A stretch of 52,221 nt of DNA, the filler included, from Sphacelaria rigidula (taxonomy: Eukaryota), in assembly GCA_964200075.2 (NCBI GenBank). It is 3 parts of 3 records of this genome, joined end to end, with 100 filler letters (N's around TTAATTAATTAA, not from the genome) between each part and the next. Parts side by side here need not be neighbours in the genome. Positions count along the whole stretch, not along the records: positions 34,884 to 52,221 come from CAXNAA020001107.1; 2 more parts are not named here. The stretch is one strand, 5' to 3'. Below are positions 12,001 to 52,221 of this stretch, in pieces. Made by a program: the position numbers and the translations under genes. Below the pieces are notes generated by a model. That model was not told the DNA's origin. It saw only the letters and a list, made by a program, of their open reading frames with translations, and ran no database searches. Position 1 is the stretch's first letter. Every line of letters starts with the position of its first letter.

Positions 12001-15000
12001 ATGAAACTGCGCATGTGACCGGTACCGATCGGAAGCCTACAGCCCATCATAAGCAGTGATATCTTCCACTCCTCTTCCGAGCACTACGAAACCCTGGAAA
12101 AGGTATCGTTAAATACCCTGGACACGGGGGAGACATTCTTCAAACGTACTCATCCCCATGCTATTGCTTGATGACCCCGCTTGCTCCCCGGCCCTGATCG
12201 CCGCGGACAAAGTCAACTCATCCTCTCCCCAAACCATCTTCGCGGAAATGGGTGGGGTGTCGCGGCCAGACAACAAAGAATCTGAGCACGTGATCGGTAC
12301 CAATAGAAGCCTATAACGTACCTCAATCAGTGATTCCTCCGACTCTTTTTGTCGGGGCTATCAAACTCCCGAGGAAGGTATCACTTCATCCCCTCCCCAT
12401 GTACGCTCAAGGGTCAATGTACCGCTAGGGCCTGTTACGTACAGATGGCGATGCTCTCGACGCGCGGGAGACATCGCAAGGACGTACTCACCGTACCCTA
12501 GTGCTTGATGATCTCTCCTCCTCACGGCCCTCCTCCCCGCGCGCACGCAATACATTCCCTCCTCAAATCTCTCAGCGGGAACGGGGTGTCATCCGACGCA
12601 TGAGCCATTTTGCGGCGGCGCAACGATGAATCTGAGCACGTTGTAATGCGTGAGAGGACCGCGTGCTTAGAGGACCGCATCAGAATTTGAACAGTCCTAT
12701 AGTTAGGGTTAGGGTTAGGGTTAGTGTTGGGGTTAGGGTCAGGGGTGTGGTACCTGCAAGGACTGACCCGATTGGTTTTGGAAAACGTCGATCCTGAGGT
12801 ATTTTGAACTACGGCGTGGTCCTCTAAGCACGCGGTCCTCTCACGCATTACAACGTGACCGGTACCAATAGAAATCATACAGTCTACTCTAACAGGTGAT
12901 ACTTTTCATTCTTCACGGGACAACAACGAACACCCCAGGAAAATATCGCTTCATCCCCTCCCTGAATAAGTCCATGGATAACCTCTGCAATATACGGATA
13001 ATGATGCCCCCAAACACGTGGGAGGCATGATTGGGACACTCTATTTTTTGCCCTACGACCCTTCCCTCCCCCTCTTCATACCATGAAGATGTAATCAATG
13101 CACCCCCTCCACGAAATTGCCCAGGTAGCGATTTACATTCAGCACTATCAGCATTTGCAGTGTCAACTTCCCGTGCTGATAAGGTGGCATATATCGTCTC
13201 ACTACTAATTTTGACGGAGGCCAGCAACTCACGTGAAACGTTTTCAGCCTTTGGCCGACGACGGGGGTGTCGGTGTTGCGGTGGGAAGAATGCACGGGTC
13301 GGGCGAATTAATGATTCGTCTGAAAATTTCTCGATTTTAGTGTGATTGGTTCGTACCGTACGCATCAATCCTTGGGCTTTGTTTTCAGCGTTGCAACCCA
13401 GGTACGCGCAGCCCAGGCACCCTGAACGGCGCAGAAGTTGCGTGGGAACCATTCTGACCATTGGTCGTTTTTTTTCCTTTCGAGCAACCAGGCCTGAGCA
13501 ATCGTGGATTCGGTAATTCGAACCGGCGATGATTCGTTCGAACCGTGGAAGAATGGGCAAATCGAGCGTTGTGAGCTGCGGCGTCAAGATGCCCTTTATG
13601 GATATTTCGCTTCGAACGGTAGGGCCCTTCTGCTCCAAGCAAGCATGATATTCTGACGAATACTTGCTCATTTCTCGACACATACCTTGGTCCATCCATG
13701 CTTCCATGTATCGAACGAATTGTGTGGAGCTTTTCCGCCGATACGTTTCGACCACTTTGGACCCTAACAAAGATATGCATAGCGGACTCTTTTGGAAGAG
13801 TGGCACTTGGTTTTGGCACTGTACACAGTACATATTAAACAGGCATAAACACGTCAACAAGAACCACAACAAGCCTGACTACAACGTGCGACTGCGACAC
13901 GTTACACCATACACAGTCGCCCCGAACGAACACGCACAAACGCCCACAGCACAAGCACATCACGTCTAGCGCTAGCTCTTGATAATCACAAGGAGATATT
14001 GGGAGAGGGGCGGCCGTGTGTGCGACATAGACGTAGCTAGCGGCGGATTCGCTAGCCGATTGCGGGTATGAAATACGGCGCTTGTCGTACAGAAGTGACC
14101 GTGCCACATAGTGTGAGCCATGTTTCAATTGATGCGATTATCCCGTCCGTTGTTCCCACATACAAGTAGTTCTCTCTGCTTCCTTTGCTCGACAATCACT
14201 AGACTGCAAGTCACCATGACGCTTGCAAATGTTACAACAAAGCACGACCTGCTGCGTTTCACATTTATTTGGGAGTCATTAGGATTGCATGAGCGCGTTC
14301 CGTACTGATCTAACCTACTAAGGTGCCGTTACAAGTGTTACTCCTGCTGAGCGATACCGTACGTATTGTACTGTAGAATTCCGCGACCATCAGTTGCATG
14401 CAGGAGTGAAGCCCACTTCCTGCACCCAGGAGCATTGCCGTCTCGCTCCGGAGCCATGACCCGTCGTATGGGAATAATTACCTGGATGAATAGAACCTAC
14501 TCCAAATCACTCTAACGTCGTAAGGTCATGCACAACTCCATACAATAGCGACAGCTACTTGACTTCAGACTGCAAAGATTTAACTACTTGAATTAGGAAC
14601 AGCTACATTGACACTTTCTACGATAGCCCCCCCCATAAAAGTGCATGGTTTTTGGGAGGCAAAATCTTCCCGTAAATCAAAATGGGAAAAGCCGAGCACA
14701 ACGAGCAGCTGGGAATTCTCATGACTGGGTTCGTTCTAGCCAGTATTGCCAATATGAGGCGCTTCATGCAGCCTGAACCCAAGCATCAGGCGCTGTATGC
14801 TCATTTTTTTCGTGACCCTTTTGGCTGGTTTTAGGGGGGGGCTATCGTGGAAAGTGTCCATTGGGCACCTGACTTTAGCGTTGCCACTCGATCATTTGGA
14901 TTAATTATACCCAATCATAACTACTTAAAGTTTGTTCAGTCTCTATCCCAAATTTTTAGGCAGTCTAGACGAATATCATACTCGATAAGGTGGGACATAC

Positions 15001-17343: not shown

Positions 17344-17443
17344 NNNNNNNNNNNNNNNNNNNNNNNNNNNNNNNNNNNNNNNNNNNNTTAATTAATTAAN
17401 NNNNNNNNNNNNNNNNNNNNNNNNNNNNNNNNNNNNNNNNNNN
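17344..17443. other. Assembly gap / artificial spacer (N44-TTAATTAATTAA-N44)
   Basis: Identical 100-bp construct at 34784; the insert gives stops in all frames. Confidence 0.97.
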
Positions 17444-33084: not shown

Positions 33085-34078
33085 CTTCAGTTGGATTTCC
33101 TCTTCCATGACCACTTTCCATTTGTCAGCATCAGGTTCTGCCAGGGCTTCTTTCGCTGTCGACGGTTCCTGTGGTCCAGTCACGATTCCGCCCGCGAGCA
33201 TGCAGAATGCGCCTTTGTCCTCTTCTTGTAGAAGGGTGTCAAGAAAATTTCCGTCATCAGAACTGCTGTCGCCAACACTCCCAAAGCATTACTGTATGTT
33301 GTCCCCCCGACGCCGTTGCGCCAGTCGACTGGACCTGCGTAGTCCACTGTCCGGAGGAGAGCGCTTCGATGATGTCGAGTCCCGTGGTGGCTGTCCACCC
33401 GGGCCGTCATTGCCGTCGATTGGTGCTGCTTCCTCTTCCCATGGTTCGTCCTCGTCATCACTGAGTTCGACCGCCTCCAGCTCCCCCAAGATGTCTACGA
33501 TCTTGGCCTCTGATTTAAACGTGATGTGTGAAGACTTGACGAGCTTTGATTCCTGTATCAGCCATACATACCAGCAGAGAGAGTGCCGATTGTGCCCCAC
33601 CAAGATGCCCCGCTTCGCATATGGGTGGAACTTCGCAGCGGCGCCGCGTTGCTGCTTGTGCTGATGCACGAAACACTCGGATCCCCAAGTACGAAGCCGG
33701 TCGTAGTTGAAAGACTTTCCTGTCAGCCTCTCACATGGGGTCTCGCCCCCGAGGTACTCGTGGGGCATCCCCATGGTCTCTAATGCCGCGTCCGCCACAG
33801 CGAAGAACCAGTAGTCCTCTCCGCGTCCCGCTTCCACCTGTTGGCTACGTACTATCCTGATCAGTTGTTGAATTGCACGCTCACCAATTCCATTACTCTG
33901 CGGTGTCCTTGGCGGGGAGGAGCGCCACTTGATGCCGCGATTGGTCAGCATGCGTTGAAATTTGACTGACTGTCCAAGATCCCCAGCGCCATCTCTGCTG
34001 ATGCTTATAATGGCTACTCTCACGGGCCATTTCGTCGATGTAGGCTCCCGTGGTGTCAGTGTCCGCATCTCGTGTCTT
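33085..34078 (-). mobile_element. Ty1/Copia pol fragment: integrase core, SH3-like region, linker and first residues of RT
   Basis: ISRDGAGDLG...SPPRTPQSNGIGERAI...ETPCERLTGK...LRTWGSECFVH...KFHPYAKRGILVGH (ORF 33289-34089); EPSTAKEALAEPDADKWKVVMEEEI (ORF 32926-33201); truncated both sides. Confidence 0.9.
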
Positions 34079-34462
34079 GAGCTTTTCATTAAGGATGAGA
34101 ACCCGGAGGATCAAAATCTTCGTATCCACACCAAATCTTTGGAATATGGTTCCATTCTCACCTACTGGTCGCTATTGACCAGTGCTACACGCCCCAAAAA
34201 TTTGGACTTCGATAACCGAAATTTTGGGGTCCTGGGTAAGAAATCGATTCAGAGGAATTACGGCGATCCGATCGGATCACCTAGGTTCCACATTATGTTT
34301 CATCAAGGACCCCAACATCTTGGTTATCGAAATCCAAATTTGTATGGCGTGTAGTAGTTGTCAATAGCTAGCAATAGGCGAAGGAATGGAACCATATTCC
34401 GAAGATTTGGTGTGGTTCCGACGATTTTAATCCTCCGGGTTTTCATCCTTAATGAAAAGCTC
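34079..34462. mobile_element. 384-bp foldback (palindromic) element
   Basis: GAGCTTTTCATTAAGGATGA...TCATCCTTAATGAAAAGCTC; arms pair imperfectly to a central GATCCGATCGGATC at 34265-34278. Confidence 0.85.
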
Positions 34463-34883: not shown

Positions 34884-34957
34884 ACTTAAAGCGAATGATC
34901 AAAGCCACTCTCAATCGTATCATCTACTCTCAATCTCACGAAAACACTGTTACATGT

Positions 34958-35149
34958 GCTGATGCGTGAGAGGACCGCGCCGCGGTTCTAAATACCGCAG
35001 GATCGACGTTCATGACCAGTCGGGCCAGTCCCTGAAAGTACCACCCCCCCAACCATGACCTCACCTCTAACCGTAGCCCTAACCCTAGCCATGGGTATGT
35101 TCAGATTGCGGTACTGTCCTCTGAGCACCCGGTCCTCTAACGCGTTACA
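34958..35149 (+). mobile_element. Telomeric-repeat-bearing MITE, copy 3 (old, diverged)
   Basis: GATGCGTGAGAGGACCGC...GGTCCTCTAACGCGTTACA with degenerate CCCTAA units; no TSD recognisable. Confidence 0.8.
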
Positions 35150-36891
35150 CTAGCGTCGGACGAGCACGACCTTGACTCGTGGTACTCGCGAACTCGTGGG
35201 CTGCTTGTCGGGAGTTCGTGAAGATCTTCGAACACGCAGTTCGTTGCGGGCTATGAAAACCTCCACAGAGCGAGTACCCTCGTCATCGCTTGCTGTGAAA
35301 AACTTCGTGGAGTGGGAACACGCGTCGTTGGTCCTTGTGAAAGTATGAAGTATGGGCGAGCCCTCGACTCGTTGCTCGTGGCGAACGCCTGAAATCGACA
35401 AAGCTCCCGCGAAGTAGCTTGACAGTGTTTCGCACCACCGCCTTCTCCCTGCATTCGTTGGTGCAGCTCCGCTTGTATGATTGAATACAGTCTAGGGACG
35501 GGGGGGTGGCTGTGCCGCACGAGCGCGGCTGACGCAACATGGGTAACATGTGTAGAACGGAGGCTAGCGAGCTCTCTCGTTGGCCGGTTGCTGGGGATTG
35601 ATGGACAATCAACCGACCACGCGTTGGGAGAATGTTATAGCGTGTGCACTCCAGTATTTGCTCGCTGTGGAAAATATGAACGGCTTCCTGTTCTTGCACC
35701 TCATCAAAACGTGATGGGAGCCAACACTTGACTCGTTTCTTCCAGAATAATCAATCGGACGCGTGTCCAAGTCGTTGTTCGCTGTGGAACATCAAGAGGG
35801 CGCAAGCTCGAGCCCCACCCAAGTTTCAAAAAGATGGATCCCGTTTCGACGAGGCATGACGAAACCCATGCGTGCGGGCTGTGCGTTCGGCCAAGTATAA
35901 CACGGGTCGTGTGCAACTTTTCAGCCAGTTCGAACGTTGGCGTGAACACAAATGTATGGCGCCATGAATCGTGTGTCCACGTCGTTCAACAGACATGCTC
36001 CAGCTCATTTCCCCTCGAGGTAAACAAGACGAGTATGGCACACCCACGTCGAACCGTCACTGTTTTCATGTCGACTGGCTCCCAGCGGCAACATTGAGCC
36101 ACGAGACGAAGAGGGTACGGAGGCTTGTGAACTGCAATCGATTAGTTTTCAACGTACAAGTTGTTCAATGACGACAACGGCCATGATCGTAGTCGGGTCT
36201 CAATTATCATACGGGACGCCCATAGGCGACAGTTTTGTCCGAAGAGGGGGGAGGGGGGACCATTGTATGTTGTGCTACAGTACCGCCAATGATCATTCAA
36301 CGATAATCCCCACGTCCTGAGCCATACGACGCATCATCTGGCACACCTGGGGGCTACTGCGGCGGGGTTTGGAGGGAATGAGTGCCCCATTGAACACATT
36401 CCGCCAGTTACTCACAAGTTGCTCCGTGACGGCAACCACAGATCATACCCTACACAAGCTACCATCTACATTATTGATCAACACACTTCAGTATCTTACG
36501 CTGTACAACAAGCCACCGTCTACATTTGTGACCAACATCCGTCCAGTCTACGCATCCTCACCTCCTTTCACACGTATGCCCATTCGGAAAAGACTACTGA
36601 AACGCGGGCTCACACCATCACTACACGTATCCCGACCAAATCGCTGCGGTTTTCTGGGGCCAACATGCAGCACCGCATTTTCATCTCATCACGTGTACAG
36701 TCACCTAGGCCCACCGGTCGAAACAAATTCCCATCGCCCATCAGCACCAGGACTCAAGGAAAAACACAGCGGAGGCTCCCGAAAATCAAACCGTGGGCGC
36801 TTGCCCATCAGGTCGACCTTCGCGAGGAAACCTACTACGGTACTACCGCTCGAAGAGCAGTGGGCGGTTCTTCGGGACTGGTTACGGCCCG

Positions 36892-39352
36892 TTAAGCTCC
36901 AGTCCCGGGCGCGTTACCGCTATTCCCGGGTGCGTTACCGCTATTCCCGGGTGCGTTACCGCTATTCCCGGGAGTCGCTGGCTCAGGCATTGGCGTCGGA
37001 CTCGGCACCGGGGTTGGTATCGCGGTCGGCACCGGGGTCGGCACCGACGTCGGCGCCGGCGTAGGGTCCGCGTTGAAAACGAGCACTTGAACAGCACAAA
37101 TGCTCGGATTACTGCAGATGACGGGGAAACTCTCCGGCGGGTTCCACTCGGGAGCGAAAGTGCCAAACCTGACCGGGGTGCGACCGGCGACAACGCCATT
37201 GACGACCGCGACCACGAAGGGGTTCGTTTCGGCGACCCGCAAAGCCCGGCGGAAGATCGTCACGCTCTCGATCTGCACCCTCACCTGCGATCCGTAGACA
37301 ACAGCAGCGTTCGGGTCGATGGCAAATTGTCAGCGGTCGGGAAGCAGTCCGAGTAAGTATCATCTCTCCTCACTACCTTGTCGGGAACTCGGCTAGTGCA
37401 AAATTATGTTTACCCCATCACGGGGCATGAGGGCAAGGCAGTTCGACGGCAAAGCCCATCCCAAATCGCTGACCGCGATGCGCGGGAGCAGGCACAGCCC
37501 GGCCCGTATCCTTCTCTTCGGGAACGGGGGCATACTGAGTCTCACCACCAAGGTTTCTATAAAACAACGTCGGCACCGCGGCACACCATGCGACGCATGA
37601 TATCCACTACGGTTCTCACATTGATCCCTCCCCCCAGCTGAAGACCGCGGGACGCCTCACTCTCCGCCGAGATGGCGGCTCCCTCTCCTTCGGTCGTTTC
37701 CGTCAGCCTCCGATTTACCAACACAATGAAGATGATCTGTCCGACAACCGTTCCATTCACGTCCACAAGGACCACAACAATTCTCCGGCCGAGTACCAGA
37801 TCTATGATCTCGATAATTCCACCGCCAATCGCGAGGCCGGGAATTCCTGCCGTTCGTATGGACATGCGCAAGGACAGCACGGTCGACGCAAACCGAGCGA
37901 GAGATTTTTCGTTATCGAGGCACATGTGTAAAACGCGCACGCGGTACACCACGACTTGGCAGTACCTCAGCAAATTCGACCCTGACCGAACGGACACCGA
38001 AGCAGCTTGCGGAAGGAGTCAACCAGGCCGAGGTGCCGATCAAGGGTGTGGCGTTGCACAACAGTCTCCGGCACCCCTGGAATTTCACGTTGCGCGTCAA
38101 AACACATGAATCATGAGACAGGCACTTGTTCGACCTTCATCTCACCCGGAATCGGAAAGATGATGGCCAGCACCGGGGCTGGGGTCGGCTGCGGTGTCGC
38201 AGTCGGCGCCGGCGTGGCTGTCGGCGCCACCGTGGCGGTTGGTGCCGGTGTGGTGGTCGGGGCCGCTGTCGGTGCCGGAGTAAACTTCCTCCTTCCTGCA
38301 AGCGAAATGAACGGAGTACCAACACACGAAGCGGAACCACCATGGCGCGAGGGCGACGTGGGTGCAACGAACGCGGCTCAGGGCACGACCCCCAGGAGTT
38401 TTGGTGTGTGATTCCACTGCGACAGACATGGTACACGTTGGTCGACCTACCGCCCTTGTTCCGCATCTTCGACACATGTTTAGCACTAGTCTCTACTCGC
38501 GCCGTTCACGAATATCGAGTTGCACTGCTGTCTTCAGCGCTGACCACGGCATGGCACACCAAAGGTGGCCCAGTGCGCGGTGCACGCACCACGGAACCTC
38601 CGTCCTCTGCGACGTCTTCTGCCCCCCCTTCTCCGTCTCCTCCTGCCCCTACCCCTGCCCCTGCCCCTCCTGCGGCGTTTCCTCCTGAGGCTCCTGCCGT
38701 ACTCTTCACCTGGACGTGCGGTGCAACACGACGGCGGAGCGGGGCGACTTCGGATGGGGATACGATACAGGCGGACCCTGTCAGAGGCAGCACCCACGTC
38801 GAGCGGGTTGTGACCACGCCAGGTGCATGACTGCACCACCGATACCCGTCCACGACACGGCAACGACTAGATTTTTCCATCGAAACTCCTCACCCTCCCG
38901 AGGGCTCACCTTGCCCTGATGCTCGTGTGACCGAGCCTCCGGCAACAGACAGAGCCAAGTCTGTCGGTCTCTCCTCTTCCCGCAGTGCCACCGCCTCAGC
39001 TGTTGGCCCTGACACATACGTTCACGGACATGGAGTTCGGGCGCTGAAACTCCCTCGGCCATGCACGCGCCAGGAACACACGACACACCCGGAGAGCACC
39101 CCGAACGCGTCAGCGAAGTCAACGCTGTACAAGTTAACACCAAGCCAGCTCCGGGATCAACGCCCAAGGTCTACCGTAGACATGCGACACTCATGTGTAC
39201 CATTTCCGATCCGCTTACACGAGCAGTACACGAAAGCCGTAATGTTCGCGACAAAAGGTGTGCGACTCACCTGCTGCAGCCGAACGCGCGAAGAGAGCCA
39301 AGCAGAAGATGATCCCAATCACGCATCCGTACAGCCTCTTCGTCGACAACAT
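36892..39352 (-). CDS. Secreted 356-aa protein: signal peptide, RxL motifs, poly-Arg tract, Pro/Thr stalks, permuted C2-like domain, GNSGNAP repeats
   Basis: Six GT-AG exons 39352-39271, 39008-38910, 38709-38590, 38295-38146, 37846-37620, 37284-36892 sum to 1071 nt in one open frame from ATG to TAA. N-terminus MLSTKRLYGCVIGIIFCLALFARSAAA; C2 motifs NPFVV, GRTPV, APEWN, ESF, VQVLVFNAD. Confidence 0.85.
36904..36972. repeat. 3 x 21-bp coding tandem repeat (PGNSGNA on the minus strand)
   Basis: CCCGGG(C/T)GCGTTACCGCTATT repeated three times in the last exon. Confidence 0.9.
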
Positions 39353-40908
39353 CCTGCTTCACCACCCGGTGGATCCCCACCAGACGATCGCTCCCTGTGG
39401 GTCAATCATTAGCAAAAAACTGAATAAAAAGAAAAGCGGCATCTCTGCGCTTGACAAGATACAACGCAGAGGCTCTCGTGTGTGGGATGACCGCGTATTC
39501 TCTTCACCTGGTTGAGGTTAATGCTGGGGTTAAAATCAAGAGCGGGGTTTCCGCAGGTACTCCCTGAACCGAGGTGTAGAAACTCGTCCACCCCGGTGTG
39601 TTCAAACTACGCGTGCTTTCCACCCATCACGGGCTCAACGCCCTCGTCAGTACGGGTGTGTCGGTACTCTCTCGGTTCATCTGTATACTCAAACCTACAC
39701 ATCGGGTGAGGGTCAGATCCTCCGCCAGCTACTTCAAGAGGACTCGAACGGGTCAACGTATGACGCCAGTGCCGCTCCCGCACGTTCCGAGCTCAAGTCT
39801 CAGGGCGGGCAACTTTTGAGGGGAGGTCTCCTCTGATTCCGCGGAGACTGAGTACCCGTCCTGTTTCACAACAACGAGTCTCGGTGTGCCGCCGCGCGAC
39901 AACTTACACCAGACACCCCTCACCTCTTTCTTCAAAACATGGACACGTGAACATCACTCCTCCGTAAACTCAACGTCACGAGATATGTGTCTTCTTTCGC
40001 GCCAACACACTCTTAATTGAAAAAACGGCCTCTATTGGTCACGCCATGAGCAGACAGAGGCGGTCGCCCAGCAAAAACCGGCGAAGACCGGGGACTTGGC
40101 TGCGCACGAAGCCACACTCAAAATCACCACCGTCGAAGAGGCAGACACATACACACACACACAGCGCGTGCACACGGCAAGACAGCCCTCACTCTGCTCT
40201 CTCACCCTCACGCGTATCCCCGACGGTGCTGTAGTCCAGGAATGGAGCGGACGACCGTGACACGGACAGTTGTTGTGAGGACGCGGGGGGGAATGGGGGT
40301 AAGGGGGGGGGGAGGGGGCGGTTACAACAACAGACGACAGCGTGACGGCTCGTGTTCCATCCTCCTGCGAGCACCTGTCCTCTCACCTGCCGAACGACTC
40401 CCGCCTGACGAAACCATTGGTACATGTTCCCCATCCCTCCTTTATACCCCACGGATCAAAGGTACACGTTTCCCACAGCTTCATGCGGCCTAAATCATAC
40501 GCACATTTTATCCTAGTTCTGCCCTAATTGTGCATCAGCGCCGAGATTGGAATGATTCAGGACTTGGGCATCTCATACCGTCCACGGCACACGTACAACG
40601 AGTTCCGGGTCAAATGTTCGCCTCAGGTCCCGATTTGAGCCCCCAAAGCGCATCTTCTTTCTCCTAGGACACATCGTTCACATGTTTCCGGCTCCCGACC
40701 AAATGCGGTGCATGTATTGTATGCAGTCAAGACACGCCATAGCGGAACTCGGGCTATGATACGACGTTAAAAAAGCCAAAATTACAGCGTTGAACTTCGC
40801 ATCTACGTTCATTGCAGAGAGCGCACAGGTCAATCCGGGTAGGCCCGAGCATCACGGTCTCTCTAGCGGGCACAGAGACACTGCGGGCGCTGCACCCTGC
40901 TTGGGTGT

Positions 40909-41146
40909 TGTGATGCAAAAGAGGACCGCGTGCTCAGGGGATCGCATGATAGTTCGAAACACCTCAGGATCAGCGTTTTTGGAAACAAAATCGGCGTAGT
41001 CCCTGCATGGCCACACCCCTGACCCTGATCCCAACACCGACCGTAACCCCAACACCAACCCTAACCCTAACCTTAACCCCAACCATAGGGTCGTTCAAAT
41101 TCCGATGCGGACCTCTAAGCACGCAGTCCTCTCATCACGCATTACA
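40909..41146 (+). mobile_element. Telomeric-repeat-bearing MITE, copy 4
   Basis: TGTGATGC...GCATTACA; long partly degenerate CCCTAA array; flanks GTGT/GCGT (4 bp, 1 mismatch). Confidence 0.85.
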
Positions 41147-41255
41147 GCGTGTCAAGCACGACCGCCACTCTCTTCACTTGCAACTGTTATGCCCCTGTGG
41201 TGTGTCCACAGCGTCACAACCGAGAAAAACGCCGCGGAACCTCAGCTGTGCGGTT

Positions 41256-41435
41256 TGAAATGCGTGAGAGGACCGCACCGGAATTAAACATCTTCTTGGT
41301 CAAGCTTAGGGTTAGGTTTAGTGTTGGGGTTGTGGTCAGGGGCGTTGTACCTGCAGGGACTGGGGCCCGATGGGTTTTGAAAAACATCGATCCTGAGGGG
41401 TTTCGAACTGCGGCGCGGTCCTCTCACGCATTACA
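41256..41435 (-). mobile_element. Telomeric-repeat-bearing MITE, copy 5
   Basis: TGAAATGCGTGAGAGGACCGC...GCGGTCCTCTCACGCATTACA; 5-bp TSD CGGTT; TTAGGG-type units. Confidence 0.9.
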
Positions 41436-42372
41436 CGGTTGCTCCGCGTGGAGGCGTGTTTCCCAAACTGGATAGCCGGACTTTGTTGCCGTCGCTCGTT
41501 CCGGGCTCCAGAAACCTTTAGACGTCGACCGACCACAACGCTACCGGAACGGTTTTACGTGATGAAGCTTCCATCACGGACATTCGAATTTTTCAATGGA
41601 GGGGTGACAGTCCCGCCCGGAGACATAAACCTCTTCGCGGATCCCAAGAAGTTCAGTATGAAACCAGGAAAACTGCGGAAAACCTGCGTACTGTGTGCCC
41701 ATCTTTTCTCGATTTTCTCTGATATGTTTTTCGTTCCAAGTTCCGAAGAACACGCGAGACCACCTCCGACCTGAAGCGGCTACTTCCACTTCGCCACATA
41801 CTGTAACCCATCTGCCTACCATAGGTAGATCGTGGCCCGATGGTGTGAGCACTACCAGATCATGACCGCTTGGTAACGCAGTGCCGATCGTGATCGGAGC
41901 GAGCGGGATTCGTGATGTTCACGCGATTTTGTCGCCCAATACTCATGGCTCAAACATCCTCGATCCCAGGGGCAAAGCCGGGATTCAACCCCTCCGTGGA
42001 ACGTCTTTTCGTCGCTGCCTTCTTTCCTCGAATCAGGATCACTTGACCTCGTCTTCAGACCGTCATGGTTGGACGGTCAGCGCTCGAATTTTCTCTAGCG
42101 CGGGTACGTTTTGGTCGACATGCCGGATCTTAGAAGCCATCACAGAACAAACCAGACGCCGGGGGAATCCTACAAACCGCCGGGACCACTTTGTATTCAA
42201 AACAACAAAGGAAGCGTGCACACATGCACATTGGCCCAAAAACACTCGCAAATCGCACGTGAACAGAGCAAAACGTGAAATAGCTGCACACCAAACGCAC
42301 ACTATTTTACGGGGTAGTAGTGCACCATGCCGACATTGCAGTCGTCTCAGTGAACCCTACATTCTTGCACAG

Positions 42373-42380
42373 TATATATA

Positions 42381-42411
<31 letters not shown>
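42373..42411. repeat. (TA)n microsatellite
   Basis: Direct reading. Confidence 0.9.
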
Positions 42412-42661
42412 CATGCTGCAATGGCGAAGGGGAGCTGTGTAGAGCCCGTTTTCGCCGCGAGCTTGACTGATGCGCATCACGACCCGTATTTCGCCCAGTT
42501 TCGTCAAACACCGAATTTCGTTCCGAGCCCAGCACATCAGCATTTTGGCTGTCATAAGTCTCTCGACGACACCGTCTTATTTCAAGCCATGGACTGTCTT
42601 GCCCAAACTAACCCATCGGAAGGTTGCCGTGAACAAGCCGAACTATGATATTGAAAGTGAG

Positions 42662-42846
42662 CGTCATGCGTGAGAGGACCGCGGTGGGGACCGCCCGTTG
42701 TTCCGAATAGCTCAGGATCGACGTTTTTCGAAACCAATCGGGTCAGTCCCTGCAGGTACCACGCCCCTGACTCTAACCCAACGCTGACCCTAACCCTAAC
42801 CCTAGGAAGGTTCAAATTCCGATGCGCGGTTCTCTCACACATTACA
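42662..42846 (+). mobile_element. Telomeric-repeat-bearing MITE, copy 6
   Basis: CGTCATGCGTGAGAGGACCGC...CACACATTACA; flanks GTGAG/GCGAG (5 bp, 1 mismatch); CCCTAA units. Confidence 0.85.
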
Positions 42847-42929
42847 GCGAGCACCATTTATTTAGACTATGTATAGGCTGGACCGCCTAAGACGCAGACA
42901 GGGATGTGAACACGCGATTTAACAGCTGA

Positions 42930-43182
42930 GTTTCAGGTCTTTTTCTATGAAATTTTGACACGATGTACAGGACGTATGTACCAAGACGCCACCTTTTCCC
43001 CCATATGCCCTTTTTTTTTTTTCGAGTTATTCACGATTTTATTCCGAAACAAACTGTTCTGAAATGTTTGGTTGTCGATAACTCACGGGGAAAAATTAAA
43101 TAATTTAGAGGGGGAAAGGTGGCGTCTTGGTACACACATCCTGTATATCGCGTCAAAAATTTCATTGAAAACGACCTGAAAC
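42930..43182. mobile_element. ~250-bp foldback MITE with ~73-bp inverted arms
   Basis: GTTTCAGGTC...GTACCAAGACGCCACCTTTTCCCCC pairs with GGGGGAAAGGTGGCGTCTTGGTAC...GACCTGAAAC. Confidence 0.8.
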
Positions 43183-44011
43183 GATGTGTTCACCGCTTGG
43201 TAGGATGAAAAAAGATCTTGGAGTAGTCACGGTGTGTGCAAGTGCTGAAGAGGATAATAATTGTTTTTTTCGCACATGAGCCTGATGTTTGGAACAATAC
43301 CTCTGGCGACATCTGTTCGTCAACAACAGTTGTCACCTCGTTCGTGACAGTCCCGGAAAACTTGCGCCGCTTCTCAGCAAGAGCGAGCACACAGCACACA
43401 CACCCGACGCGCACACGCTCAGTCAATGACACACACACACCCTCAAGCACAAACACACACACAAGGGCATTGTGCAGTATTCCTGCTGCGCCTCGATGTG
43501 CCAAGTCGCTGCAGTGTACCAGCTTGGAGAAGAAGACCTCACTTGATACATACAGTAAGTAGTCTGGCTACATGTGCACGCCTACACTACAGGAGTAGTA
43601 TTTGCGCAGCACACCTCCCGCTGCTGCAATTGTCATGCGGGCGATGTAGCCCGAGGGCAGAGCGACACAGTTCGACACAGCTCGAGAGTCTATGCCAAGG
43701 CTGCATCATTACACCACAGCGAAATTTTGGGCTTGTACCCGGAAGAGGTTGGGCATGGGTAGCAGCTATGGTGTGTAGTTGAGTGAATTCCATGCTGTAC
43801 TGGCGGGAAATCATACCATTCTGGCGGGAATCTACGGCGACAATGGAAGCTCCGTTCTCCGACGAGGAGGCGGGCTTATTGCCGAGGAACTGGACGGGAT
43901 GCCTTCGACCCGTTTTTTTCCGGTCGACACTCAACACGCGGGCTATAGCGCTCATCCTCCGGCAGTATACTCTGTACAATGTACAAAACGACCCCGTTTC
44001 TTCTGCCAGGC

Positions 44012-44240
44012 TGTAATGCGTAAGAGGACCGCGTGCTCAGAGGACCGCGCCGTAGTTCAAAACACCGCAGGATCGACCTTTTCCAAAACCAATCGGGCCA
44101 GTCCCTGCAGGTACCACGCCCCTGACCCTAACCCTAACCCTAACCCTAACCCTAACCCTAACCCTAACCCTAACCCTAACCATAGGGATATGAAAATTCC
44201 GGTGCGGTCCGCTAAGCACGCGGTCCTCTCACGCATTACA
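44012..44240 (+). mobile_element. Telomeric-repeat-bearing MITE, copy 7, with (CCCTAA)9
   Basis: 37-bp TIRs, 4-bp TSD AGGC, nine perfect CCCTAA at 44126-44179. Confidence 0.95.
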
Positions 44241-44916
44241 AGGCTACCATATTGGTCGCCATTAGATTTGGTTGTTCTGAACCGGCACTGGTCGTTAGGG
44301 GCAATCCACGCGGCACTGCATCGGAGATGAGGCAAAACATCGAACCAGACATACGGTTTCTTATATCGGGGATCGAGGAGGGGCTAAGCATGGAGGGAGT
44401 GCGGCCGATCGGACGGTTTATGGGCGGAAGTGGCTGAGGTAGTCACGACAGGAACGGCGGCGAAGGGGCAGGCGGTGACGTACAGTCATGGCTGTGTGCA
44501 AGGTGCAAGGTGCTGGACCAGGCATCACTCCATCCTACGGAGCGTCGTGTGTGCAACCGCCCAAGAGTACCCGAAGAAGGGCATGACCGTGGGGATATGG
44601 GGGGTGGGGGGGGACAACGGGGGGTGGCGGCGGCGGGACCGGCCGTAGACGGGAGTTTGGGGCGGAGATGGGAGCGGGGACGGGCGCAGTGACAGCGGCG
44701 GTAGGGGAGGTGGGCGCGGGAATGGGGGCGGCTGCAGCGGCTGCGGTGGCTGGAGGGTGTATATATCTGTGACGTCTGCATCCGATGCCCTAGGGACAAG
44801 ACTGAATGGAACTCGTGAGTTTACGAGAGCACTGTACAGTTATGCGCGCCCTCTGCTTGTACCACGCTACAGGCGTCATCCGCGGTTAAGGGCCGCTTGC
44901 CTTGTTTGTGTGTACG

Positions 44917-45270
44917 TGTTGTCAACCCATCTATCCTGAACGCCAGTTTACACCTTTCGGTATATGTGGGCGCACTAGCCGGGGTCACACAGGAGGAAGG
45001 TCAACACAGGAGTAGTTTTTTCTTTTTTATTTGTTTTTAGTACTGCACCTCCCTTCTGTGGTGCTTGCCTTTCATTTTTATCGCAAAAGGGGTTCAGCAG
45101 TCCCTTTCCCTCGTCGACCGTTAAGACGAATTTTGTGTACCCACGACATAGTCGCTCTCCACTCTTGGGCATGGTGTGGGATAAAATCCCACATCGCGCC
45201 GAGAGTTGAACCCACGATCCAACCGTCAGAAGGTTCCGAGGTTACCAACTGAACCACCGGCGCGACTGGC
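44917..45270 (-). mobile_element. tRNA-derived SINE (~350 bp)
   Basis: Minus-strand head with A-box TGGTTCAGTTGG and B-box-like GGTTCAACTC; body shared with 22908-23105. Confidence 0.75.
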
Positions 45271-45797
45271 TGTCCAGCTGAAAAATAAACATCACAAGTC
45301 GCTTTTTGACTCGCCCAGAAAAACCCCAAACCATCGTCGAACAAGCTTTACGTGAAAAAATCGGTTCGGAATCGCCTCGAATTGATTTGTTCACCGTGCT
45401 TATGAACTTTTCGTATTTTGTGCTCCTCGCCACTCGATTCCGTTTCGCCGATTCGGGGAGGCAGGGGGGAAGGGGGTGAAGCATAATTTACGACGTTGTT
45501 GAGGCAAAAAAATAACTTGGTTTGACTTGAAAATTTCTTCGCGATAAAAGCTTCAAGATGACCGTCTGGGTTCGACCTGATCTTTGATTGCGAAAAATGC
45601 CGTCGTTGGCGACATATCTACAACACCATAACTGAAACGACAAAAATAAAAACAAGTGCGGGATTCGTCATCTCCGCCCACAACTTAGCCTACAGTAAGT
45701 GTTTAGTTGCGTTTGCCTCTGAAACCCCTAAAACGTCGTGTGAAACGCTACACGTGAAATATCGGTTCGGGATCGCCTCGAGAAAATGTCTTCACGT

Positions 45798-45806
45798 TTG
45801 TTGTGG

Positions 45807-45844
<38 letters not shown>
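45798..45844. repeat. (TTG)n microsatellite
   Basis: Direct reading. Confidence 0.9.
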
Positions 45845-45845
<1 letters not shown>

Positions 45846-48800
45846 TTCATGCTCCTTGGCAGTCGATACTGTGCCGCCTACCATTTCATTTAGGTGGACG
45901 CAGGCGTGTCGTTACCTGTTGATCCAGGGACGTCGACTCTGTTGACTTGAATTTTCCATTGCGAGTAAAAGCCCCAACATTCCCGTCTTTGCTCCACTGC
46001 AGTAAATCTTCGCGATACTCCGATCTCTCTACTAAGTACCCTTCATTGTCTCCAACCGAACGTCACTGCTCTGGCGTACTTGTCTCCAGTTACGCAACCG
46101 AGGCAAAGCTCGTGGATTTCTTCAAGCAACTCTAATCACGTTTGATCTCATGTATCGGAGGCAGCGAGAAGTGTTGGAATTAACTTTTGGAACGCGGGTC
46201 TGCAGCGACATCGGATGCGGAAGGATTTTACACGTCCGGCGCGAGTCAGATCGCGCACATGTTTTTGTGGGGGGCGGAGGGTGGAGGGCGCTAAATATGT
46301 TGTGGAAATCGTCAACCACTAGCTGGTGAGTCGCGTTCAGTTGTCTCTCACGCTGTAATCGCTACAATTTGGGGAAATACCGATCCACGAGCATGCATAC
46401 CAGTGAGGCGTCTGTGTAACGCGTGCGATTCCAAGGAAACAGTTGCCCGCCAATAATCTTCTCGGTGTGACCCCACCCATGGTATAGTGGTCAACCTTTT
46501 AAAAAAGCAGGAAAACAAGGCTGACCGGGGGAATTATAGAGGGATAACGCTACTGAGCACGGTGAGGAAAACATTCCGTAAGGTTCTGGACGATAGAAAC
46601 ACTATATTTGTGGGATTCAGAGGGTAGTTTCAGATTCAGAGTGGATGCTCTAGCTTTTCCAACAGCCAACGTTTTTTGTTTTTTTTGCTTGAGCACACGT
46701 GCTGTGCATGCAGCTACCGTACAGTACCCCATTCGAGGAATTCGGCGGTCTGGTTGGTGAGATACCGCACAAAGTATTTTTACCCCTGGGGGGCATTTCG
46801 GAACTGAAACTGTTTCAGGCACTAATCGGTTTTTCCTGAAAGAGGGGACCTTTTGTTGCAATGGACTGACTATGTCGTTGCGATCAAGTGATGTGTCAAA
46901 TTGATCGTCTAGGTGACAGCTTTCATTGAAGCCACCGCTTCACCAGCTGGGCGCACTACTCGTCGAACTGTGGCGATGTCAAAATCGACGGGAAAGTGGA
47001 TTGTTTCGGGTCTCACTCTGAATCCGATGTTACACTCTGAATCTCACGAATAGTGTTAGTTGCAATATGCCTATATTGTACGCAGCATAAGTTTTCTAAT
47101 GCAAATATTGAGCACACGGACTCCATTGTGCCGGCGAGTCATGCTACAGTACAGTAGGGGGAGGGATATTTTGGACCATTTCTTCCAGGGAATTCCACTT
47201 GAACACGTCGTTGAAAGCAGCAGCGGTTGTTGTTACGAACGCGCTTGTTACCGATATATAACGCTGATTCATGCTGCCTGACACCGTTTTACCCAAGTAC
47301 AAGTGCACCGCGAGTGTGGGCCCTTTTTGTTCGTGGAATCACACTCCTCTCCCCCCCCTCCCTGTGTTGTTGCACGATTCCGACAGTGAAAAATGTTTTC
47401 GCGAAATATGGAGAGTCCAGGGTACGATTGAGAGTGAGAAGCGGTCAATTAATGAATTAAATGTTTCAGTCCTTTCGAAATGCCCCTACACGAGGTCTGA
47501 TAGACATTGTGGAGTAGTAGCTTGCCACTAACTGAAGCCTTTGATATCCCCGAGTAGGATATCGACGCGTAGCTGTAGGCATACGACAGTTTTACTTACA
47601 GGCAAACAAAAAAACACACAGAATGAAAACAAAGGCCAAGTTAGAGCGAACAAGAAAAATCTTAATCAACGCTGAACTCTCTTTCTCATGAAAACATTGT
47701 TAATAAATGCAGCAGGCCCATATCTTACGCCGCCGTATACAGTTTTCCTGTTGCAGCTATAATTGCCCACATTTTGTCAAGTGTGCGTAATACTAGTAGT
47801 ACTGTACGCCACGCCCCGGTCGTAAAACTAGCACGACTGAAATTGACTCGACGGGAAGAGTGCGGGTTCGATACCCGCGAGATGCAGCTGCGTTTTTTTC
47901 TGAGAAAAATCCGATTTCCGTCGTTGAAAAAGCGATAAAAAAATGATGAATAGACGATATAGTCAACCAGAGTCGACGCGGTGCGGAAGTGCTGGTCATG
48001 ATCCAGTACGCAATACCAAATACATGTAAGTCGCGTACAGCGGGTGAGATAAAGCTGATCGCCGTGACCACGGACTCGTACCGAGTAAGGGTATGGGAGG
48101 GTTTGAAGAGACAAAAAAAAAGAAGATGGGCTATTTTTGTACGCTAGCCCGGCGTTAATCTTTGACGGTGTCTTCTCTCATTGATCGATTGGTTAGTTGA
48201 TTGTTCCGAGTCACAAATCCAGTCTCCATCGTTATAGTCACCATATAGATACGCGTTTCTAAAGCAACGTATATCGACAGAAACACTTGCTTGATGACGG
48301 AAAAATTCGAGGAATGGAAAAAAGATGAGAAAGTAAGAACAAAGCCGGCAATAAATATACTGGAAGCAACAAGAACGACGTATTAAAAAAGAAGATTCAT
48401 CGAATAAAATAAAATAAACATGCCTACAGTGCAACCGAGGAAGACGCCACGATGGTTATAGCGAACATGTAGGAGTATCAAGTATATCGGTGATCTCATT
48501 TCAAGATCTAGAAAGAAAAACGGGAGGCTTCAGTCGCGTGGCTGCAGGCAAACGTCGCGGCCGCATAATAACAAAACAACGCGAAACAGCGCAACATGAA
48601 GAGGATCCTGGAAGCAGGGTTGCGACTCAGTTACCCGAGGGCGTTACTATCGGGCAGGATCTTTCACCCACGAGTTCTGCAGGAGCAAGACATGCGCGAA
48701 AAAACACTTTGATAATACTCGTATGTATAATACGGGATTTAAGCAAGACCCAAAACCAACCAAAAACTCTGGTGGGGGGGAGGGGGGGATAAGACGAGAA

Positions 48801-48904
48801 GGACGGAAGGGAGCGAAAGAAAGAGATAAAAACGAAGGGGAAGGTAATGAGAGGAGAAAGAAAGCAGGGAAGAATGGGATCCAGAGGCAAGAAGCACACG
48901 TATG

Positions 48905-49180
48905 CGTAGGCTCGCGATCGATCACCAAGCACAAAGCGCCGTGGTGTACTCGGCGAATCGCATGACGGGTGAGCTGCATCCTAAGATTCTTCTGCCCGAA
49001 GCGTACTGATTATCTTGCATGGGAATGACAACCTCCAATGAGTTGATTAATTTTCTGGTATCGTTACTTCCAGAGACAGCCACGGCCTCCATAAACACCG
49101 CCTCATGGATGTCGCACTATTCAAACACTGCGTAGTATGAGCATCTCCTCTGCGCGAAGTTGATGTTCTCCCGCCCCGCT
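48905..49180 (-). mobile_element. Internal fragment of non-LTR subfamily II
   Basis: Shares TCACCAAGC...TCGCATGA.GGGTGAGCTGCATCCT...CGTACT.ATT with 50970-51120. Confidence 0.6.
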
Positions 49181-49341
49181 AAAGATGTTCTAGCTCGACC
49201 ACCATCGTAATGGTAACGGCAAAAAGAAACGCAAGCACGCAAAAACCCCGAAAAACCTGGTTGCTTCGCTTATTACGCAGTGTGAGGGGCGCGTTTCAGC
49301 GCCATCGCCAACCGACGCCTACCCTCCAAGGGTGGGCTATA

Positions 49342-49466
49342 CGGTAGGGGTGCACCTTTCAGTTCCAGAGTTTCTGAGGCTGCACAAAAGAGCCCAGATG
49401 TTTGTCATCGAGAGGCTCTCAAAGTGCAGAGTCCCACACGAAAAGAAAAAAAGTGCACCCCTACCT
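49342..49466. mobile_element. 125-bp MITE with TA target duplication (Tc1/mariner-type)
   Basis: TA-CGGTAGGGGTGCAC ... GTGCACCCCTACCT-TA. Confidence 0.7.
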
Positions 49467-50868
49467 TAGGACAACCGTTCGGTCGCCGCAAAAGTGAGCG
49501 TGTTTGATGTGACTGGTCGTGAAGAACTGGGATTTCGGTTAATATCAGATAAACCCTGTCTTACAGAGACAAAAAAAAAAGAGGAAAACAAGGACCATCA
49601 TCCCAAAAAGTATGACGTTCATCGGTCACTGGGCGGGTCTATGGTCGCCGTGACCGATCAACATCCTGCTCTTGGACGCTTGCTTCTATTCTCGCATCTT
49701 TTTCTTAGCTCGATAAGACGCGGTCTCAGTCACGCGGCCTCCAGGGCACGGTACTTACTGTACACAATAGCTGTTCATTTTTATCCCCTCGTTTTCGTTT
49801 GATCGTGTGGTGTCGGATTGAAGACTGAGCTTGCTCGTATGTCGTAGTGTTGGCACGTGCGTTCGGCTCATTCATGTGCATCGTCCTGCTTGGAGGATTC
49901 AAACACGCGTCTATGTATGTTGTAAGGAAGAATTACGGTTGTGCGCCGGAATTGACGAGGTGGGGCGCGATCACGCGAAAAAAGCTCCCGAGACGGGAAT
50001 AAAATGGGGTAGTTTTCGCTCTAACACGCCATTGAATTCATCTCCCTGTCATTGCAGCCGCTCCATTGCACTCCCGTCGCGCTACGCATCCCTCTAGCTC
50101 TCCCTTTCCGTCTCTATTGCGTCGCACCCTCAAGCTCTCTCGAGGGAAGACATGATGATCAAGACGTGGTAGGCTCGACCATTGTTTATCTGCCGTGAGC
50201 GTGGGCTGTTTGTCGCGAGGCACTTTACCACAACAAGTCGAAAAAAAAAAAGGCTTGAAAAAAAAAGCCGTTCATGGCCAAAAACAACGAGGGTACGACC
50301 ACCATGGCGCCCGCCAATGATAATGCCTGATTTACCCCGCCTTGTAAAAACAACGTACAACGCACAGCACTTCGAGAAACATCCATCACGCACAAGGACA
50401 CCCCGTATCTCATCTACTTCGAGAAACCACCCTCCCGAAATATGGGTCATGCACCAGAATCTCCCCCCTCCACCCCCCGTCATCCCCCGACCCCGAGCTG
50501 CCGCTACTGCAGCCTGTGCTGCACGATAACAACGTAAAGCGCATATTTTTGTGGTAACAACCATCTTTGCCGAATGGAAGACGACGCAAAAACAGGTGGC
50601 GAACCAAAATAGAGGTGGATACATCATAAAAACAGGGTCATGTACAAAAAAATAGACAGAGTAAGTAACATGCAAGCACGTCATCGATGGGGTGCAGCGC
50701 AAAGCCAGTCGTCTGAGCCCTCGAGAGGAAAATGCCACGATCCACTGCCCTTGCTCATCTGTGTGCGCTTGGAGTAGGCGCGAGGCTCGTCCGTCAGCAC
50801 TTCTCGCATGTCCCCGTTCCACTCTCCCAGCGCGAATCGCGTCTGCGATCCAGGGGGCATACAGACGA

Positions 50869-51120
50869 GGGGGGAAGTGTACTCATGATTTTGCATGCCA
50901 TAGTCATATGGCCTCTGACCTCGCATCCCTACAAAGTCAGGGACGGAGAACGCCGGGTTTTCGCCGGACCAGGCTCGTGGTCAGTCACCAAGCGCGAAGC
51001 GGCGTGATATGTTCCGCGAGTCGCATGAAGGGTGAGCTGCATCCTGCTATGATTGCTCGGCTCAAATCGTACTCATTTCCTTGAATGGGGATGACAGTCT
51101 CTCATAAGTAGCTCAATTTT
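50869..51120 (-). mobile_element. 3' fragment of non-LTR subfamily II
   Basis: Reverse complement ends GGATGCGAGGTCAGAGGCCATATGACTATGGCATGCAAAATCATGAGTAC-ACTT-C6. Confidence 0.65.
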
Positions 51121-51141
51121 CCTCAAGTGGCGACACCAAAC

Positions 51142-51331
51142 GGGGGGCGTATCCATTCGTTGCTTGCCTTAGTTGTTCGACCATTGACCACACATCCCTT
51201 CCGAGACGGGGCACCGTTCCTAGTCCTGATGGAGACATCTCCAGTATTCCGGCGTTCATTACGTTTCTTCCATGTATTACACAAAAACCTTCAGATCTCA
51301 TCCCTTCCCTGGGGGGGGGGGAGGGGGAGGG
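51142..51331 (-). mobile_element. 5'-truncated 3' fragment of non-LTR subfamily I with C-runs on both sides
   Basis: Homologous to 17444-17600; G6 at 51142-51147 and G11-A-G5-A-G3 at 51311-51331 on the plus strand. Confidence 0.75.
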
Positions 51332-52019
51332 TTGAATTATAAACGAACCTTGCACAAATAACGAGAGAGAAAAAAACGGAACAGAACACCCCTCTCTTTT
51401 TGGATGACATGGGCTACTTGATGCCGAAGAGCCAACTCGTGCCGATCGACATACAGGTACTAGAACACTACGACAGAAGTTCAACACTGTGTGTGGATTT
51501 CGCCTTGGTGTGACACTATCAACTGAACTAAAAAACAATCACTTACAAAGATAGCCGACGCCTGAGCGTGCACAATTTTGCAACTACTTCACCTTGCGTG
51601 GGTGTTCATTCAGACGTCGGTCGTTCAAAGCCTGCTAGTTTACACAGATTTCGAAGTGAATGTGCCCGCGACCGAACAAACGAGCAGACAGCTCATGATA
51701 CCCCTCATTTTTGCGCCATGATTTTCTTGTACACACATGTTTTAACGTGCACATCTCCATCATGTTTTCAGTTCGCCACTTTTTTTTTCTTTTGGGGGGG
51801 GGGCGCTTTCGTAGACCACTTTCCGAGGGGTACTTGACAGGGTTACGGAATCAAAGAATCGTTTTGAAACTGTTCCGAAATGACCGTCATCTAGCAGGCA
51901 TTACACACCCTGAAAAAAATCAAATAGTCAAAACGTGCACTGCTCACTGTATCGACTATCGTGTCTTTTGCAATCAACAAAAGATTCCATTCTGCACACC
52001 GCACTTTTTTTATTATATA

Positions 52020-52221
52020 CTTCCTCTGTCCCATAAGTAAAGTCCGTTATGGGCTTTTAATCGTTTGTGCATTCAAACTCTTCCGATCATCCCATAGTTG
52101 AGTTCGCAGGAAAGATGAAGCGCCAACGAAGCTGATGCAAAAATAATAAAATAAATAAAAAGTTAGTGGTCCATACTAGAATGACGTCAAAATACGCTAA
52201 TTTTGGCCCACTTTTGGTCCA
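52020..52221. mobile_element. Possible left end of a Stowaway/mariner-like MITE running off the window
   Basis: TA followed by CTTCCTCTGTCCCATAAGTAAAGT resembles the CTCCCTCCGTCCC Stowaway terminus; no right TIR visible. Confidence 0.3.

Follow-up and report, generated by a model that had tools for sequence, protein, structure and literature searches.

What kind of protein is encoded by a Sphacelaria rigidula (Eukaryota) gene in which a signal-peptide-like start is followed by an acidic stretch, an RxL motif and a dense run of arginine, and could that run hold the product in the cell wall? The gene lies on the minus strand of a 52,221-nucleotide stretch of DNA from assembly GCA_964200075.2, hereafter the window, which joins three parts of three records with 100 filler letters between each part and the next; the gene falls in the part from CAXNAA020001107.1 (positions 34,884 to 52,221), and all positions given below are those of the whole stretch. 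An initial annotation, made from the sequence alone, had described positions 38146-39352, which are the first four coding exons, as a silaffin-like precursor layout. We found that the gene is real, spliced and transcribed, and the best explanation of its features is a lineage-restricted gene that belongs to a brown alga or close relative and encodes a modular protein of the secretory pathway. From its sequence features we file this product as a putative secreted wall glycoprotein of modular build, marked by conserved RxL sites and an unusual polyarginine module.

The gene has six coding exons between the ATG at 39352 and the stop codon at 36892, with GT..AG at the ends of all five introns, and its single long open reading frame (ORF) encodes 356 residues. 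The exons and upstream transcribed parts are:

40206..40236, minus strand: 3' end of an upstream exon of the 5' untranslated region (5'UTR), with its donor GT at 40205-40204; exon start not located
39353..39394, minus strand: untranslated start (5'UTR) of coding exon 1; an in-frame TGA stands 12 nucleotides upstream of the ATG
39352-39271, minus strand: coding exon 1
39008-38910, minus strand: exon 2, phase 1-1, with joints 39007/39270 and 38705/38906 in runs X1, X2 and X8
38709-38590, minus strand: exon 3, phase 1-1, the polyarginine exon
38295-38146, minus strand: exon 4, phase 1-1
37846-37620, minus strand: exon 5, the beta-rich first half of the folded domain and an acidic loop
37284-36892, minus strand: exon 6, with the stop codon inside it

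The transcript check drew on four runs (X1, X2, X8 and X11), with contig joints taken as listed and converted to exon borders by cut offsets of +1 and +4. Word depth over the exons ranged from hundreds to tens of thousands in X1, X2 and X8, and nine wholly intronic bins had X1 depths of 0, 0, 0, 0, 12, 15, 0, 0 and 0; the same nine bins had depths of 14-153 in X11. The joints 39007/39270, 38705/38906 and 37845/38145 were present in X1, X2 and X8, and the skipped segments end in CT..AC on the plus strand, which is GT..AG on the minus strand. The joint of exons 3 and 4 (38294/38589) was carried by one X1 contig at a depth of 4.16 and by 12 unplaced letters ending X8 record 28, and the junction of exons 5 and 6 is supported through loose ends at 37615 and 37284. 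Letters of another loose end, at 39395 in X2 and X8, match minus-strand 40236-40207, which implies a 5'UTR intron of about 811 nucleotides (40205-39395). A tblastn search of the window with the gene model found no second copy, and Rfam returned zero families within 36000-41000.

The depth of exon 3 was comparable to that of its neighbouring exons in X1, X2 and X8, and since no joint between exons 2 and 4 was among the contig joints listed, there was no sign that the exon is skipped. The first ATG of the spliced mRNA is the model start, and the sole ORF of at least 40 residues that covers exon 3 is in the arginine frame; one other ORF of at least 40 residues lies far downstream in a different frame. 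Because only the arginine-frame ORF covers exon 3 from the first ATG, we conclude that the exon is read in that frame and not as Gly/Ala. The initial annotation had assumed the arginine frame for 38709-38590, and the spliced contigs from three runs bear it out; exon-3 skipping or a Gly/Ala reading, either of which that annotation had held to be fatal to its interpretation, did not appear.

Twelve exonic differences were listed in the runs (6 synonymous and 6 conservative replacements), which are too few for an argument about selection. One X11 contig agrees with the window as far as 37713 and continues with 255 unlike letters, the start of which, reverse-complemented and translated by hand, resembles a 'GQVTVVV' strand of related proteins, and an X1 contig connects 37713 with 38172, with no splice-site ends at the joint; these contigs hint that the sampled organism carries another, diverged copy or allele. 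A loose end at 36815 is common to all four runs and others occur at 36986 and 37017, in the second stalk and the 3' region, and these could reflect stalk length variants or a different 3'UTR in the sequenced strains.

Along the encoded protein, a signal-peptide-like start is followed by a mildly acidic stretch, RSLR, polyarginine, a Pro/Thr/Ala stalk, a beta domain, a second stalk and GNSGNAP repeats:

39272..39352, minus strand: codons 1-27, signal-peptide-like N-terminus, from residue features
38910..39008 (exon 2), minus strand: mildly acidic, probably disordered pro-region with EER at residues 39-41, from splice joints and charges
38687..38695, minus strand: RSL at residues 66-68, an exact RxLR together with R69
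38590..38686, minus strand: main part of the polyarginine tract, residues 69-100, in exon 3
38282..38295, minus strand: end of the polybasic tract, residues 101-105, at the start of exon 4
38147..38281, minus strand: stalk 1, residues 106-150, from Pro/Ala/Ser/Thr composition and 18-nucleotide periodicity
37712-37704, minus strand: RRL, residues 196-198, in exon 5
37649-37641, minus strand: RGL, residues 217-219, in exon 5
37063..37284, minus strand: C2-related half, the first 74 codons of exon 6, from hhalign, Pfam and fold matches, with a Cys pair at residues 283 and 289
36964..37062, minus strand: stalk 2, residues 301-333, from composition
36892..36963, minus strand: C-terminal repeats and stop, residues 334-356, a 21-nucleotide unit in 3.3 copies

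Residues 1-27 look like a cleavable signal peptide: they include K5 and R6, a 16-residue hydrophobic core (Kyte-Doolittle window mean at most 2.63) and S-A-A-A preceding G28, and this predicted basic n-region, hydrophobic core and AxA-type end agree with the signal peptide first proposed. An acidic propeptide had been claimed to follow it, and an acidic stretch is indeed present, though its acidity is only mild (7 acidic and 3 basic residues at positions 28-65, net -4). The 41-residue stretch after the signal peptide (residues 28-68) ends in RSL, with RSLR starting 39 residues past the presumed cleavage site after A27 and EER (residues 39-41) standing 27 residues ahead of RSLR. The 37 residues after RSL (69-105) hold 25 Arg, 2 Lys and 8 Gly, a net charge of +27 and exactly the Arg and Lys count originally given, and the tract occupies its own symmetric phase-1 exon. 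Inside that exon, four runs of four G with 2-base spacers (38667-38646, coding strand) form a possible G-quadruplex motif in the mRNA. RxL motifs number four in the whole protein (RSL66, RRL196, RGL217 and RAL239), with about 1.0 expected by composition outside the tract; RAL239, which the initial annotation did not list, is not conserved.

The tract is followed by the TPAP-type stalk that had been described there: stalk 1 is 82% Pro/Ala/Ser/Thr (37 of 45 residues), with 6 AP and 5 TP dipeptides, and stalk 2 is 76% (25 of 33). The last 30 residues are Gly/Asn/Ser/Ala/Pro repeats without a hydrophobic stretch, and the protein therefore has no glycosylphosphatidylinositol (GPI) signal. Every sequence feature named by the initial annotation was thus located on the minus strand at the place it gave, with the C2 label applying to only one half of the folded domain.

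That domain (residues 151-300) is beta-rich and is interrupted by an acidic loop between RRL and RGL. In public protein collections its relatives are few: P0001, an annotated but partial Sphacelaria rigidula (brown alga) protein, and four single-exon fragments, of which P0026 and P0039 span the first half and P0041 and P0113 the second. P0001 shares 50% identity with the exon-6 ORF and 68% and 58% with the two domain halves. Searching longer proteins with the exon-6 protein gave 18 matches, with P0001 a true relative and the other 17 matching the low-complexity tail; a further protein search recovered only P0001 itself. A profile of the family (A2) found 4 proteins (P0026, P0001, P0039 and P0113), and another (A1), run against representative proteins, gave 481 matches, the best 150 of which were listed; weaker relatives may be hidden among the other 331. 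Most of those listed match beyond about position 165 because A1 kept the repeat tail, and among the matches listed the domain itself was matched only by P0001, P0026, P0039, P0041, P0113 and P0125. The C-terminal 90 residues of P0001 are a heptad repeat far longer than the 3.3 copies in the window, and this tail draws many spurious bacterial matches in protein searches, FecR-domain proteins among them.

The first half of the domain has 25 invariant columns out of 79 across four sequences, including consecutive R-R-L-T and R-x-L-Q, which stand at opposite ends of the acidic loop while the loop between them varies. The two inner motifs, RRL and RGL, had been said to bracket an acidic linker; they do so, and every one of the four sequences spanning this part has them unchanged. 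Both fall, in the modelled Sphacelaria domain, within a segment that lacks secondary structure and has a predicted local distance difference test (pLDDT) score below 50. The second half has 15 invariant columns out of 75, among them both Cys of a C-x5/6-C pair (4 of 4 sequences), a conserved pair that would fit a disulfide in an extracytosolic protein.

The initial annotation had spoken of two C2 halves, and this description was retained for the exon-6 half and not for the exon-5 half. The Pfam C2 model (PF00168) scored 18.4 bits (E 0.0025) on the exon-6 ORF, with a gathering cutoff of 22, and among the relatives it scored 16.0 on P0041 and 12.2 on P0001, with no match to P0113. The family profile matches P0125, a protein of 3436 residues with 12 C2 domains by Pfam, at E 5.1e-8. 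When aligned by hhalign with nine C2 repeats of P0125, the second half gave a probability of 96.4% (E 1.1e-9) over 48 columns that cover strands 1-4, and the first, exon-5 half gave E 0.054 over 11 columns. On this profile evidence the exon-6 half is a divergent C2 relative. It is probably one without calcium binding: at the position of the calcium loop 1 Asp (DPY/DPF) all four sequences have Asn (NPF/NPL), and the C2 repeats have DPF.

Two AlphaFold models of the domain were all-beta with mean pLDDT of 43.8 and 51.6, and because both are of low confidence the fold searches made with them are only suggestive. In a wide structural search, 'C2' stood in the title of 31 of the 50 matches listed (Z 4.5-5.8), including the extracellular C2 of perforin, and the top match was a kinesin-3 entry (Z 6.2) that is not a C2 domain. 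The same kinesin entry was the best Foldseek match (E 4.9e-4), with C2 entries at E 0.015-0.24; C2 clusters in the Atlas at 0.81 serve as a lead only, and PDB sequence searches gave no match at E up to 10. Compared with C2, a stalk here replaces the segment after strand 5/6, and the extra strands come from upstream of the acidic loop. With the two halves swapped, the hhalign alignment grew from 71-74 to 97-104 columns at an unchanged score (52.6-53.5), and a circular permutation of C2 is no more than a guess.

The proposed likeness to silaffins held for the layout and failed for identity. The order of signal peptide, acidic stretch, RxL and polybasic part matches that of Sil1p and the diatom RXL domain: according to excerpts of PMC5525289 and PMC4557024, this domain comprises about 30 residues after the signal peptide, ends in RXL and has been observed to be removed, and in Sil1p an acidic N-terminal domain is followed by a strongly basic part. 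Residues 28-68 have this arrangement as the excerpt of PMC5525289 describes it, in layout only. Like the diatom biosilica RXL proteins (Sil1p, silicanin-1 and cingulins), the protein would be a stramenopile secretory protein with a signal peptide and a partly acidic stretch up to RXL. Unlike them, it has an Arg/Gly rather than a Lys/Ser basic part, a folded C2-like domain and Pro/Thr stalks; no sequence relation to them was found, and its nearest named relative comes from a brown alga, which has no silica wall. Silaffin identity itself was rejected. Lysines number 3 in the whole protein, Lys/Ser repeats and KXXK clusters are absent, and the basic tract is single, without the repeat units ending in RRIL or RRNL that are given as a silaffin feature in the excerpt of PMC4557024.

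Oomycete RXLR-EER proteins, which are likewise of stramenopiles, also have a signal peptide and then RxLR, and here RSLR stands at residues 66-69 and EER at residues 39-41. The excerpt of PMC11754927 places RxLR about 30-40 residues from the cleavage site, and RSLR lies 39 residues from the presumed site here, behind a stretch that is probably disordered. The same excerpt states that in Phytophthora RXLR is cut after Leu and EER after Arg, before secretion and only in disordered regions near the signal peptide. In contrast to the oomycete motif, the second Arg here is simply the first of the Arg run, and the organism is an alga, not a pathogen; Pfam found no effector-type domain in the protein.

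The third likeness is to arabinogalactan-protein-like (AGP-like) or hydroxyproline-rich wall glycoproteins of brown algae and plants, with a signal peptide and AP/TP-rich Pro/Ala/Ser/Thr modules flanking a folded domain. Both stalks (37/45 and 25/33) exceed the customary threshold of more than 50% Pro/Ala/Ser/Thr for such modules. AGP-type backbones and epitopes have been reported in brown algae, according to the excerpt of PMC8307928. In contrast to classical AGPs, the protein has no GPI-anchor signal, its polyarginine tract is foreign to the class, and its glycosylation is predicted only. A functional analogue of the anchoring proposed below is an animal secreted leucine-rich-repeat matrix protein with an Arg/Pro-rich N-terminal end that binds sulfated glycans, although its fold is unrelated, its Arg density is far lower and its lineage is animal. 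In the literature, judged mostly from titles and abstract openings, we found no description of such a brown-alga protein, and the papers listed on polyarginine with alginate or fucoidan were, by title and abstract opening, drug-delivery reviews only.

How might such a protein work? The signal peptide would deliver it to the endoplasmic reticulum, and both Pro/Thr/Ala stalks would be O-glycosylated, like AGP or mucin-type modules of algae and plants. An RxL-type endoprotease, of a kind whose existence has been deduced for diatom wall proteins, would then remove the short acidic pro-region by cutting between RSL and R69. The N-terminal tract so exposed (+27 in 37 residues) would bind alginate and sulfated fucans electrostatically in a matrix rich in carboxylate and sulfate, and the glycosylated C2-like module, poor in calcium sites, would thereby be held in the wall; the acidic loop might perhaps be excised through the inner RRL and RGL sites. 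The signal-peptide features, the invariant Cys pair and the Pro/Ala/Ser/Thr stalks argue for a secretory character, and processing is suggested by the 41-residue stretch ending in RSL(R), by analogy with the proteins above, and by the invariance of the inner RxL motifs in a segment of low modelled pLDDT. We infer cleavage, secretion and polysaccharide binding from these features. The full chain from secretion and stalk glycosylation through cleavage at RSL to the binding of wall polyanions is tentative, and we give it somewhat less than an even chance; that this is a real, modular secretory protein carrying a translated Arg tract we hold with much greater confidence.

Several points weigh against the proposed chain. 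The sequence of no relative reaches the N-terminal part in which the Arg tract and RSL lie. The signal peptide was read from residue features and hydropathy, the C2 match is below the Pfam gathering score, and both structure models are of low confidence. An RxLR is almost unavoidable where RxL precedes an Arg run, and EER stands upstream of RxLR here, the reverse of the oomycete order. Among the runs, X1 and X2 are taken as RNA by guess, the type of X8 is not on record and X11 is DNA-like, and the weakest splice evidence, one low-depth contig and a 12-letter overhang, falls on the joint of exons 3 and 4. Long polybasic runs slow translation, the ionic strength of seawater would weaken purely electrostatic binding, and the tract would be destroyed by dibasic (kexin/furin-type) convertases, for which serial RR and KR pairs are ideal cutting sites.

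This last point leads to the alternative that survives best, in which the Arg run is a multibasic processing spacer that Golgi dibasic convertases cut and carboxypeptidases trim, leaving a mature protein of stalk and C2-like domain with no wall polycation. Dibasic sites are standard convertase substrates, and the tract is made almost entirely of RR, KR and RG pairs and lies exactly between the short pro-region and the first stalk. However, 27 basic residues in a dedicated exon far exceed what cleavage needs, because one or two dibasic sites suffice, and we consider this spacer unlikely.

Slightly less likely again is a tract that is a tolerated low-complexity expansion of purine- and G-rich coding sequence with no specific function, the stalk and beta domain being the functional parts. 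Exon 3 is very purine-rich (61 G and 31 A of 120 nucleotides) and has a (GGCAGG)4.5 repeat and the G-run motif; tail length varies greatly in the family (3.3 repeats here and a much longer array in P0001), and no conservation of the tract could be shown, the relatives lacking N-terminal sequence. However, its Arg residues use five codons (AGG 13, AGA 5, CGC 3, CGG 2 and CGT 2) and its only simple tandem repeat is that of (GGCAGG)4.5, 27 nucleotides at 38642-38668, so that most of the tract is not tandem repeat and the tract is more than a young microsatellite. Exon 3 is also kept in the spliced contigs at a depth like that of its neighbours.

The precursor might instead yield a free or tethered membrane-active cationic peptide, antimicrobial or cell-penetrating, that is masked by an anionic pro-piece until secretion. 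Antimicrobial-peptide precursors commonly place an anionic pro-piece before a cationic part, runs of at least 8 Arg cross membranes, and the charges here are -4 for the pro-region and +27 for the tract. Yet the charge of the pro-piece is far too weak to neutralise the tract, and because no cleavage motif lies between tract and stalk the peptide would stay on a large glycoprotein, which makes this reading improbable. A non-functional signal peptide and an intracellular, RG/Arg-rich nuclear or nucleolar protein would accord with the RG repeats and Arg runs, which nucleolar and RNA-binding proteins typically have, and with the mostly cytosolic occurrence of C2 domains, but are very hard to credit against the 16-residue hydrophobic core with its AxA-type end, the Pro/Thr/Ala-rich stalks, the conserved Cys pair and the Asn that replaces the 'DPY' Asp of the C2 calcium site in all four sequences.

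If the polyarginine tract is taken once more as a wall anchor, a wider reading can be framed in which RxL endoproteolysis is a maturation step shared among the stramenopiles (brown algae, diatoms and oomycetes), with this protein as a natural three-site substrate. The cut between RSL and R69 would unmask a polyarginine anchor that cross-links alginate and sulfated fucans ionically and possibly binds phlorotannins by cation-pi contacts, and the inner cuts would excise the loop to leave a two-chain, possibly circularly permuted, calcium-independent extracellular C2 in a new class of brown-alga matrix proteins. Taken as a whole, this set of proposals has a slim chance of being right.

Elsewhere in the window, interstitial (TTAGGG)n arrays were found in five places (12703-12744, 41053-41082, 41306-41323, 42782-42805 and 44120-44185), and three-unit matches to TTAGGG with at most 2 mismatches numbered 20, against 0 in 100 shuffles. 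The arrays near 41000, 41300 and 44150 adjoin stretches with mutually similar translations, which suggests a dispersed repeat carrying a telomere-like array. On the minus strand at 33289-34110, an ORF with a retroviral-polymerase SH3-like domain (E 8.4e-15) and a weak integrase-core match looks like the remnant of a long terminal repeat (LTR) retroelement, about 3 kb from the gene. Around 17396-17440 a run of unknown bases, an assembly gap, puts X residues into an ORF.

To our knowledge, the wall proteins described from brown algae are very few beside the wall polysaccharides. Should the tract turn out to lack conservation, what is left is a lineage-specific glycoprotein, so far unannotated, whose C2-like fold is divergent. 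As it stands, the gene is transcribed, its product is predicted to be secreted, and with its +27 tract this product is a concrete candidate for a link to the alginate and fucan matrix; its RxL sites, two of them invariant in all relatives that cover them, may offer a test substrate from a third stramenopile lineage for the still elusive RxL/RXLR protease.

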